From Escherichia phage vB_Eco_F25, in the sequence record OP870144.1: DNA of 64,000 nucleotides; one strand, given 5' to 3'. The number at the start of each line of letters is the position of its first letter. Positions within the stretch are counted from its first letter, which is position 1. The notes beneath the pieces are model-generated. The model did not search any database. It was not told the DNA's origin and was given only the letters and a program-made list of their open reading frames with translations. Shown here in pieces: positions 5,300 to 6,644 of the stretch. The position numbers and the translations under genes are program-made.

Positions 5300-5328
5300 T
5301 AAAAAGCCCCAACCTTTCGGTCGGGGCT
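5300..5328 (-). terminator. Rho-independent terminator after the tRNA/small-RNA cluster
   Basis: Minus-strand hairpin AGCCCCGACC-GAAA-GGUUGGGGCU followed by U5. Confidence 0.55.
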
Positions 5329-5379
5329 AAGCCTTGCGGCAACCTTGTCGGGGTTCCACCTGCTAAGGCAAGTGTTTGT

Positions 5380-5470
5380 ACGAAACGCCGGGATTCGAAC
5401 CCGGTTATTAAGCAGTTGACGCTACTCAATATTTTTAAAAGGCCATATCTCGACCATATCCGAACGTTCC
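5380..5470 (-). ncRNA. tRNA-like structured RNA (T-arm plus acceptor-like 3' end)
   Basis: Minus-strand CCGGG-TTCGAAT-CCCGG T-arm followed by 7-nt acceptor-like strand; no canonical cloverleaf found by eye; position matches where T4 carries small stable RNAs. Confidence 0.3.
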
Positions 5471-5644
5471 GTCAAAAACGCTACTCGGCTTACGGCAAAG
5501 ATATTTCCTCGAATCGATAATTCGGTGCGCCGTTTCTGCTGTGATATAAGGGGACATTAACAAAACATAAAGATTTATTAATGCCAGTCCTTAAACAGGG
5601 AACATCAGTCCGACGACTTGCCGGTAGCGACCCGGCTTCTTGTT

Positions 5645-5719
5645 TGGTATCCCGCCCTGGGATCGAACCAGGACCGCAAACTTAGAAGGATCGTATGCTA
5701 TCCATTACACCAGCGGGAC
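5645..5719 (-). tRNA. tRNA-Arg (anticodon TCT), CCA encoded
   Basis: Acceptor GTCCCGC/GCGGGAT, anticodon loop CTTCTAA, T-loop TTCGATC, 3' ACCA. Confidence 0.8.
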
Positions 5720-6341
5720 GTAATTTATTTAAAAGACAAGACAAATCGGAAATCTCATCTTTTTCTAAAACTACCAAATTTTCTAAAGCTTTCCATTTAC
5801 AAAGATCTCTATCTCTTTTATATCCTTTGACTTCTATATAAAAATCATAAGTGGGTAAATAAAAATCAGGAAAATAGAGATGTTCTGAACCTTCCCATTC
5901 GTAAGGAATTGGCTTTATTTTATTAGTATATTTGATATTGTGTTCTTTTAAAAACTTAGCAACTTTTAATTCCCAGGTCCCTTTAAATTTAAACCCGTCA
6001 AACTCATATGTTTTTACTCGACCAGAAACATTAGAAGCAGAATATGAATCAGGATTATCAAGAACAGCTTGCCGCATTCTTTTAGAATGTGCTTCTTTGC
6101 GTTCATTAGACCATACATATCCAGTATTGGCTTTTCTAAGTTTTTCTCTAGTTTTATCAGAGACTTTTATTTCTTTACCTAGTTCTTTGGCTTTGGTAAA
6201 TTGATTACTACCTTTAAGACCATAACGAGGGTTATTAGGGCCGCTCATATCTAATCTATTTGGGTTAGATTTGCACCGTTTTTCATGCTGCTTTAGTGAA
6301 TTTAAATTTTTACATTCTTTAGAACAATATTGACAAAGCAT
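5682..6341 (-). CDS. Free-standing putative homing endonuclease (Zn finger + NUMOD3-like repeats + PD-(D/E)XK-like motif)
   Basis: N-terminal CQYCSKEC...HEKRC; central SDKTREKLRKA / NERKEAHSKRMRQA; C-terminal FPDFYLP...YIEVKGY; second ATG has GGAG SD; last 12 codons and the stop lie inside tRNA-Arg. Confidence 0.65.
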   Translation of the reverse strand: MLCQYCSKECKNLNSLKQHEKRCKSNPNRLDMSGPNNPRYGLKGSNQFTKAKELGKEIKVSDKTREKLRKANTGYVWSNERKEAHSKRMRQAVLDNPDSYSASNVSGRVKTYEFDGFKFKGTWELKVAKFLKEHNIKYTNKIKPIPYEWEGSEHLYFPDFYLPTYDFYIEVKGYKRDRDLCKWKALENLVVLEKDEISDLSCLLNKLRPAGVMDSIRSF

Positions 6342-6410
6342 AATTTTCTCCATGAATTTTATATAGATATTTATTCATGGAGAAGTTGACTGCTCTACCT
6401 AATCAAAATA

Positions 6411-6484
6411 TGGCCCAGACCAGATTTGAACTGGTAACCTTTCCCTTATGAGGGGACTGCTGCTAACCATTGAGCTACAGGGCC
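6411..6484 (-). tRNA. tRNA with CAT anticodon (Ile2-type or Met)
   Basis: Acceptor GGCCCTG, D-arm GCTC/AATGGTT, anticodon loop CTCATAA, T-loop TTCAAAT; one acceptor mismatch in my reading. Confidence 0.6.
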
Positions 6485-6490
6485 TTGATA

Positions 6491-6548
6491 TGCTGATTGA
6501 CGGAATCGAACCGCAAGTGAGGTGCTCTACCTACTGAGCTAAATCAGC
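6491..6548 (-). pseudogene. Internally deleted tRNA-Thr-like remnant (about 57 nt)
   Basis: Perfect acceptor pair GCTGATT/AATCAGC, D-arm GCTC-AGTAGGTA-GAGC, anticodon 5' stem CCTCA + CTTG, then directly T-loop TTCGATT; only 72 nt lie between neighbouring tRNAs. Confidence 0.45.
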
Positions 6549-6556
6549 GAAATTAC

Positions 6557-6642
6557 GGAGGCGATAGGATTTGAACCTATGAGTCGCCGGAGCGACTGCC
6601 GGTTTTCAAGACCGGTGCATTAAACCACTCTGCCACGCCTCC
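6557..6642 (-). tRNA. tRNA-Ser (anticodon TGA)
   Basis: Acceptor GGAGGCG/CGCCTCC, anticodon stem CCGGT/ACCGG loop CTTGAAA, long variable arm, T-loop TTCAAAT. Confidence 0.85.
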
Positions 6643-6644
6643 AG

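Follow-up and report, generated by a model that had tools for sequence, protein, structure and literature searches.

The 64,000-nt window analysed here, i.e. the whole stretch of DNA from Escherichia phage vB_Eco_F25 (OP870144.1), originates from a T4-like Tequatrovirus; comparison with 50,697 phage records gave T4-like phages of E. coli and Shigella as its best matches, at no more than 97% identity. A cluster of tRNA genes was delineated on its minus strand with ARAGORN and Rfam, in the T4-type order Gln-Leu-Gly-Pro-Ser-Thr-Ile...Arg (Table 1). Seven neighbouring tRNAs of the cluster were called by ARAGORN, and the place of tRNA-Thr is held by a short remnant that received no ARAGORN tRNA call. 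Homologues of rnaD and rnaC (5379-5643) close the tRNA transcription unit, and a strong terminator-like hairpin comes next.

Table 1. Features of the tRNA cluster and parts of the tRNA-Thr remnant, with positions in the window
Feature	Position	Strand	Basis or comment
tRNA-Gln	6969-6896	-	ARAGORN, Rfam
tRNA-Leu	6895-6809	-	ARAGORN, Rfam
tRNA-Gly	6802-6731	-	ARAGORN, Rfam
tRNA-Pro	6718-6644	-	ARAGORN, Rfam
tRNA-Ser(TGA)	6555-6643	-	Directly upstream of the Thr remnant; ARAGORN, Rfam
tRNA-Thr(UGU) remnant, 58 nt	6491-6548	-	Rfam tRNA, fold, alignments
Acceptor 5' strand of remnant	6548-6542	-	
D arm of remnant	6539-6524	-	
A26 of remnant	6523	-	
Residual anticodon-stem 5' strand and C32 U33 U34 G35	6522-6514	-	
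Deletion junction	6513-6515	-	Between CACTT(G) and (G)CGGTTCG
T arm of remnant, 4 bp including G.U, loop TTCGATT	6514-6500	-	
Unpaired C65 of remnant	6499	-	
Acceptor 3' strand of remnant	6498-6492	-	
Discriminator A of remnant	6491	-	
Thr-Ile spacer TATCAA (with the discriminator A, 'ATATCA' + A)	6485-6490	-	CCA not encoded
CAT-anticodon tRNA, T4 tRNA-Ile type	6411-6484	-	ARAGORN, Rfam, alignment to T4
Nuclease ORF, 223 aa, free-standing	5682-6353	-	Between tRNA-Ile and tRNA-Arg
tRNA-Arg(TCT)	5645-5719	-	ARAGORN, Rfam
rnaD homologue	about 5643-5524	-	Alignment to annotated T4 rnaD
rnaC homologue	about 5517-5379	-	Alignment to annotated T4 rnaC
Intrinsic-terminator-like hairpin and T run, after rnaC	5305-5328	-	

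The CAT-anticodon tRNA (6411-6484) is labelled Met by ARAGORN; it departs at a single base from T4 tRNA-Ile, which is lysidine-modified and reads AUA, and is therefore to be taken as tRNA-Ile and not Met. In T4, this tRNA-Ile (CAT) is the 3' partner of tRNA-Thr in the Thr-Ile pair. The stable RNAs of T4, rnaD (species 2) and rnaC (species 1), have well-conserved homologues 3' of tRNA-Arg, and no Rfam family reported either of them when the window was scanned. Weak Rfam matches to sX4, tRNA-Sec and Plastid-ycf2, which lie far below threshold and on top of real tRNAs, were discarded as chance matches.

The remnant reads GCTGATT-TA-GCTC-AGTAGGTA-GAGC-A-CCTCA-CTTG/CGG-TTCGATT-CCG-TC-AATCAGC-A on the minus strand, the slash marking the deletion junction. 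It is covered end to end by the Rfam tRNA model RF00005 (41.1 bits, E=2.8e-5 for the whole window), above a gathering score of 29 bits whose passing denotes homology and not function, and the coordinates proposed by an initial sequence-only reading of this DNA, as well as the strand, were thereby confirmed. On the same model, the intact tRNA-Thr of phage HEMP5 reaches 71.7 bits, against the 41.1 of the remnant, in the alignment of which 2 nt stand in place of the 17 model positions of the anticodon arm. The gap that had been noticed between tRNA-Ser and the CAT tRNA is real, but measures 70-71 nt (tRNA-Ser end at 6555/6556, CAT tRNA start at 6484) instead of 72 nt; misplaced boundaries of the neighbouring tRNAs, or a hidden full-length tRNA, were ruled out by ARAGORN and Rfam.

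Both the Rfam alignment and the predicted fold display the elements that the sequence-only reading had described as retained, namely a 7-bp acceptor stem (GCTGATT/AATCAGC) followed by the discriminator A, a complete D arm (GCTC-AGTAGGTA-GAGC) that is the same as in T4, and a whole T loop (TTCGATT). By contrast, the remnant has no anticodon stem with a 7-nt loop and a full anticodon, only the 5' strand of that stem and C32 U33 U34 G35 being left. The variable loop and G49 are deleted, and the T stem counts 4 bp (G.U, C-G, G-C, G-C) instead of 5, with C65 unpaired. The minimum free energy fold comprises the acceptor stem, the D arm and the 4-bp T arm (-16.4 kcal/mol, z=-2.3), with a single-stranded linker of 9-10 nt joining the D and T arms. 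The T arm could formally be read as the anticodon arm of an armless tRNA (loop UUCGAUU, 'anticodon' CGA); this was rejected, as the same is true of any T loop and the stem abuts the acceptor stem.

Alignment of the remnant to the tRNA-Thr genes of T4, FN, PP01, HEMP5 and PD112 revealed a single clean 15-nt gap corresponding to tRNA positions 35-49. The comparison with T4 tRNA-Thr, which the sequence-only reading had itself proposed, was colinear apart from this gap, so that the internal deletion stands, with an exact length of 15 nt in place of the roughly 16 nt first estimated. T4 carries CACTT-GTAATGAGGATGTCG-GCGGTTCG where the window carries CACTT-GCGGTTCG, and the missing stretch can be written as GTAATGAGG(A/C... 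)TCG, positions 35-49 of the intact tRNA-Thr genes. From the anticodon arm, the loss takes two of the UGU bases (G35 and U36), A37, A38 and the 3' strand of the stem, and beyond the arm it takes the variable loop and G49 in the T stem. The intact genes thus bear out what had already been perceived from the letters, namely that the anticodon 3' half, the variable loop and the initial base of the T stem are absent. As one G flanks the gap, its endpoints are ambiguous by 1 nt (35-49 or 36-50), which corresponds to 1 nt of microhomology. All 58 kept bases match the intact alleles, with no substitution. Moreover, both halves of the remnant have 100% matches in at least 57 phage records, the halves being 85 nt apart in these records and 70 nt apart here, a difference of 15 nt. 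A chance resemblance to a tRNA is excluded, since both halves are identical to intact genes in which they lie 15 nt further apart.

The identity of the remnant as the orthologue of T4 tRNA-Thr(UGU), also advanced in the sequence-only reading, is established by its place between tRNA-Ser and tRNA-Ile(CAT) and by the 100% identity to PP01-type genes on either side of the gap. The T4 gene (T4t003, NC_000866 72035-72110) and the FN, PP01, HEMP5 and PD112 alleles occupy the same Ser-Ile position, and their positions 1-34/35 and 50/51-73 are identical to the remnant. In comparison with T4, the remnant is devoid of the anticodon arm and variable loop, has a 4-bp T stem, and is followed by the trailer ATATCA in place of the encoded ACCA. 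This trailer, which encodes no CCA, was considered as a second sign of decay and rejected, being a common allele of intact Thr: the ATATCA type occurs in HEMP5, PD112 and PP01, and the ACCA type in T4 and FN. Two alleles of tRNA-Thr were also distinguished in Tequatroviruses, one with a C27-G43 pair (T4, FN, PP01) and the other with an A27.A43 mismatch that shortens the anticodon stem (HEMP5, PD112). These alleles differ in the variable loop as well (HEMP5 1506-1580 and PD112 1333-1405 of the extracted loci).

The loss of positions 35-49 is a disabling lesion with respect to functional homologues, and the remnant is very probably a tRNA-Thr(UGU) pseudogene produced by one 15-bp internal deletion, as judged from these alignments. 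No anticodon stem-loop can form, so its product cannot decode. In E. coli, G35 and U36 are identity elements for ThrRS. As the enzyme needs both bases, charging of the remnant with threonine should be negligible. Neither ARAGORN nor Rfam found a second, full-length tRNA-Thr within the 64-kb window, in line with the earlier proposal that this phage lacks the functional tRNA-Thr of T4. Taken for itself, this is an ordinary finding, one more tRNA pseudogene of an already known kind in a phage tRNA cluster. For instance, pseudogenes predicted by tRNAscan-SE have been recorded in the tRNA clusters of T4-like genomes (Nolan et al. 2006, PMC1524935); those belong to distant T4-like phages and are uncharacterised, whereas both the lesion and the parental alleles are defined here. 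The same gene has been lost independently in the T2-like Tequatroviruses SV76 and pSe_SNUABM_01, where a fragment also remains after tRNA-Ser; in these two phages, however, only the first 16 nt of Thr are left, followed by an unrelated ORF, as after a replacement or truncation, whereas the present remnant keeps both ends and lacks only the middle.

The distribution of the lesion was then sought beyond this genome. A 36-mer spanning the junction had no match in the 50,697 phage records, and the junction pattern was not found in IMG/VR, JGI metagenome contigs or GTDB genomes, while the full Thr gene is kept by hundreds of relatives. As the junction is without match elsewhere and the kept bases are unchanged, the deletion is private to this genome with respect to these collections and probably recent, and the short form carries no sign of selection. 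The same phage records hold no near-clonal relative with which the deletion could be dated, the top genomes being at most 97% identical. The exact undeleted parent is represented by no sequenced phage, and a mosaic of FN and HEMP5 types with an intact Thr was absent from the collections searched.

Comparison of the flanking sequences revealed contrasted ancestries on the two sides of the junction. The upstream block (6729-6515) has no mismatch to phage FN over 215 nt, and PP01 differs from it at 1 base. The downstream block (6514-5555) has no mismatch to phage HEMP5 over 960 nt and contains the 3' part of Thr, the spacer, tRNA-Ile, the nuclease ORF, tRNA-Arg and the start of rnaD. Conversely, HEMP5 shows 21 mismatches to the window in 6730-6522, the last one at 6522, which is Thr position 27, and FN and PP01 diverge from the window from 6491 and 6472 onward, respectively. 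The lesion coincides with this switch of closest relative, from FN upstream to HEMP5 downstream. Over the rest of the window, HEMP5 does not rank with the best-matching genomes, and the HEMP5-identical block therefore looks recently exchanged. The crossover itself can be placed only to an interval of 31-50 nt (46-65 nt when counted on the undeleted gene), as the two parental types do not differ in the T arm or the acceptor 3' strand, and the deletion lies inside this interval. According to a rough estimate, an unrelated deletion in the tRNA cluster would hit the crossover interval by chance in about 5-15% of cases.

This co-location leads us to suggest, tentatively, that the deletion could be a by-product of recombination. 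An FN/PP01-like block (Gly-Pro-Ser and the 5' half of Thr) would have met the HEMP5-identical block at the Thr gene, when the nuclease cassette, by exchange or by homing, took the place of segB, the gene found in FN, PP01 and T4 in the slot where the window has a different nuclease. The conversion tract may then have ended imprecisely, with 1 nt of microhomology, inside Thr, where the parental alleles differ. A point against such an origin is that the microhomology at the joint amounts to 1 nt only, and no end-joining pathway is known in T4-type phages. If true, this reading would make the locus a concrete example of nuclease-driven mosaicism damaging neighbouring tRNA genes.

The nuclease of the cassette associates an N-terminal, zinc-finger-like Cys/His motif with a C-terminal domain resembling T7 endonuclease I, as indicated by matches to phrog_15137 (E=1e-40) and PDB 1m0d (E=1.5e-5), the match to Pfam PF05367 remaining below cutoff. 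Its occurrence is sporadic (36 of the 50,697 phage records), and the distant homologues that were inspected, in Karamvirus CkP1, Lazarusvirus Apostate and Kuttervirus PhaxI, all three lie in tRNA clusters. This rarity, together with the repeated location inside tRNA clusters, fits a mobile free-standing nuclease, and on the basis of these comparisons it looks like a second nuclease family, besides SegB, recurrently tied to phage tRNA genes. We also observed that the nuclease ORF runs into the 5' part of tRNA-Arg, with which it shares its last 38 nt, stop codon included (5682-5719). IME341 shows this overlap too (CDS end at 2310 and tRNA start at 2273 of the extracted locus), and the homologue of PhaxI shares 10 nt with the start of tRNA-Met.

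As a special case of the recombinational origin, this nuclease could itself have cut a Thr gene of the C27/G43 type (T4/FN-type) in the anticodon/variable region, the 15-bp loss being the repaired break and the deleted site being now immune to re-cleavage. We consider this unlikely, although several observations point in its direction. The nuclease-bearing block begins right at the deletion, and no C27/G43 Thr was seen in the three other phages with a nuclease at least 97% identical: HEMP5 has the other allele (A27/A43), IME341 is without Thr beside Ile, and the DNA match of EcWhh-1 starts only at Ile. The location of homologues inside the tRNA clusters of other genera goes in the same direction, and SegB provides a precedent for a nuclease targeting tRNA genes (PMC2330249; PMC13096335). 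However, the nuclease occurs together with an intact Thr in one genome only, enzymes of the T7 endonuclease I type are structure-specific resolvases and not necessarily sequence-specific, and repair during homing is usually templated and precise.

An error of sequencing, assembly or consensus, or a mutation acquired by passage on a permissive laboratory host where T4-type tRNAs are dispensable, would explain why the lesion is a singleton, limited to one genome and absent from every collection searched, and why the kept bases show no secondary decay, the event being either very recent or not real. Such an origin appears improbable to us, since basecalling or assembly errors do not typically remove 15 nt cleanly from sequence free of repeats and homopolymers, and the flanks are perfectly colinear with those of relatives; a mutation of laboratory passage would, moreover, still be a real pseudogene.

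Little speaks for cleavage by a GIY-YIG homing endonuclease of the SegB type, encoded by a co-infecting phage. The T-loop motif that SegB recognises, GGTTCRANTCC, comes immediately after the deletion, and SegB cuts inside T-even tRNA genes, but it cleaves 3' of this motif, near CCAR at the 3' end of the tRNA (PMC2330249). The deletion lies 5' of the motif and the 3' part of Thr is whole here, a geometry on which SegB was rejected as the cause and which leaves it a very slight probability; segB is, besides, absent from the locus, whose ORF is endonuclease-I-like. The rearrangements of T-even tRNA genes linked to SegB likewise feature a free-standing nuclease between tRNA-Ile and tRNA-Arg and mosaic flanking tRNAs (PMC2330249; PMC13096335), and the present locus differs from them by a nuclease that is T7 endonuclease I-like and not GIY-YIG, and by a lesion off the SegB cleavage position.

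As the remnant lies inside the transcription unit that ends at the terminator after rnaC, it would still be transcribed in the polycistronic tRNA precursor. In the predicted fold of a precursor comprising the Thr remnant and Ile, for which the intact PP01 dimer was folded as comparison, both domains are separate and tRNA-Ile is undisturbed. RNase P cleaves model substrates made of an acceptor stem and a T stem-loop (McClain, Guerrier-Takada & Altman 1987, as reviewed in PMC11143913). With its acceptor stem, its T loop and a largely preserved T stem, the remnant retains such a minimal substrate and would thus probably be excised by RNase P, letting tRNA-Ile mature. The yield of mature tRNA-Ile may be lower, as the stem junction has lost its G49-C65 pair. 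According to the same review (PMC11143913), the only source that our literature search gave on details of the T4 Thr-Ile precursor, tRNAs of T4 are processed out of dimeric precursors with a yield that is sensitive to structural damage. Overall, the analysis describes a remnant that is non-decoding and likely still processed as part of its precursor, and that offers a natural substrate on which to ask whether an upstream tRNA without anticodon arm supports the maturation of its dimer partner tRNA-Ile.

These features also raise the idea of a functional, non-decoding tRNA-like RNA that would be expressed, excised and stable, acting for instance as a required module in the RNase P and 3' processing of the highly conserved tRNA-Ile downstream, or as a decoy, capturing factors that recognise the acceptor/T-arm half of tRNA-Thr. 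The perfect acceptor stem, D arm and T loop, the score above the Rfam threshold, the independent folding in the predicted precursor context, and the presence in T4 clusters of stable non-tRNA RNAs (rnaC and rnaD) are all compatible with it. The remnant nevertheless shows zero conservation across the phage, IMG/VR, metagenome and GTDB collections, relatives in their hundreds having kept the full gene; the lost G49-C65 pair is uncompensated, and the kept structures are simply what a 15-nt loss leaves. We regard such a function as very improbable. The sequence-only reading had offered both a pseudogene and a minimal tRNA-like processing element: the first option is upheld by a lesion private to this genome, and the second has no conservation behind it, although as a passive property it may hold, since the acceptor stem and T arm survive. 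RNase P model substrates and the tRNA-like domain of tmRNA share with the remnant an acceptor/T-arm coaxial unit without anticodon arm; the likeness, however, is one of shape only, with G49-C65 lost and no sign of selection, of alanine-type identity or of partner proteins. Were it functional, the remnant would constitute a phage-encoded analogue of the tmRNA-type tRNA-like domain.

Considered as a pseudogene, the remnant makes this T4-like phage a natural tRNA-Thr(UGU) knockout. Among 50 long ORFs of the window, 31% of Thr codons are ACA (20.5 per 1000), and for this codon the phage would now rely on the single tRNA-Thr(UGU) of its host. This tRNA is the target of P2-OLD, which, according to a 2025 report, kills by cutting the anticodon arm off the only tRNA-Thr(UGU) that the host possesses, phage tRNA-Thr(UGU) genes rescuing from its toxicity (PMC12445682). 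The main text of this report does not state either way whether a T-even tRNA-Thr is among the rescuing tRNAs; it counts position 43, through shortening of the anticodon stem, among the features modulating the resistance of tRNA-Thr to OLD. With tRNA-Thr lost, protection against nucleases that destroy host tRNAs, such as P2-OLD, would be lost as well, and the phage is consequently predicted to be more sensitive, i.e. more exposed to OLD-type defences.

Further variation was observed at the other end of the cluster. ARAGORN found no tRNA-Gln upstream of tRNA-Leu in HEMP5 and PD112; in PD112, an ORF stands in the place that Gln has in T4, and the corresponding ORF of pSe_SNUABM_01 carries an HNH endonuclease annotation. 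Compared with the window, HEMP5 also contains about 570 bp more, which, along with the missing Gln, represents additional nuclease-linked variation in the cluster.
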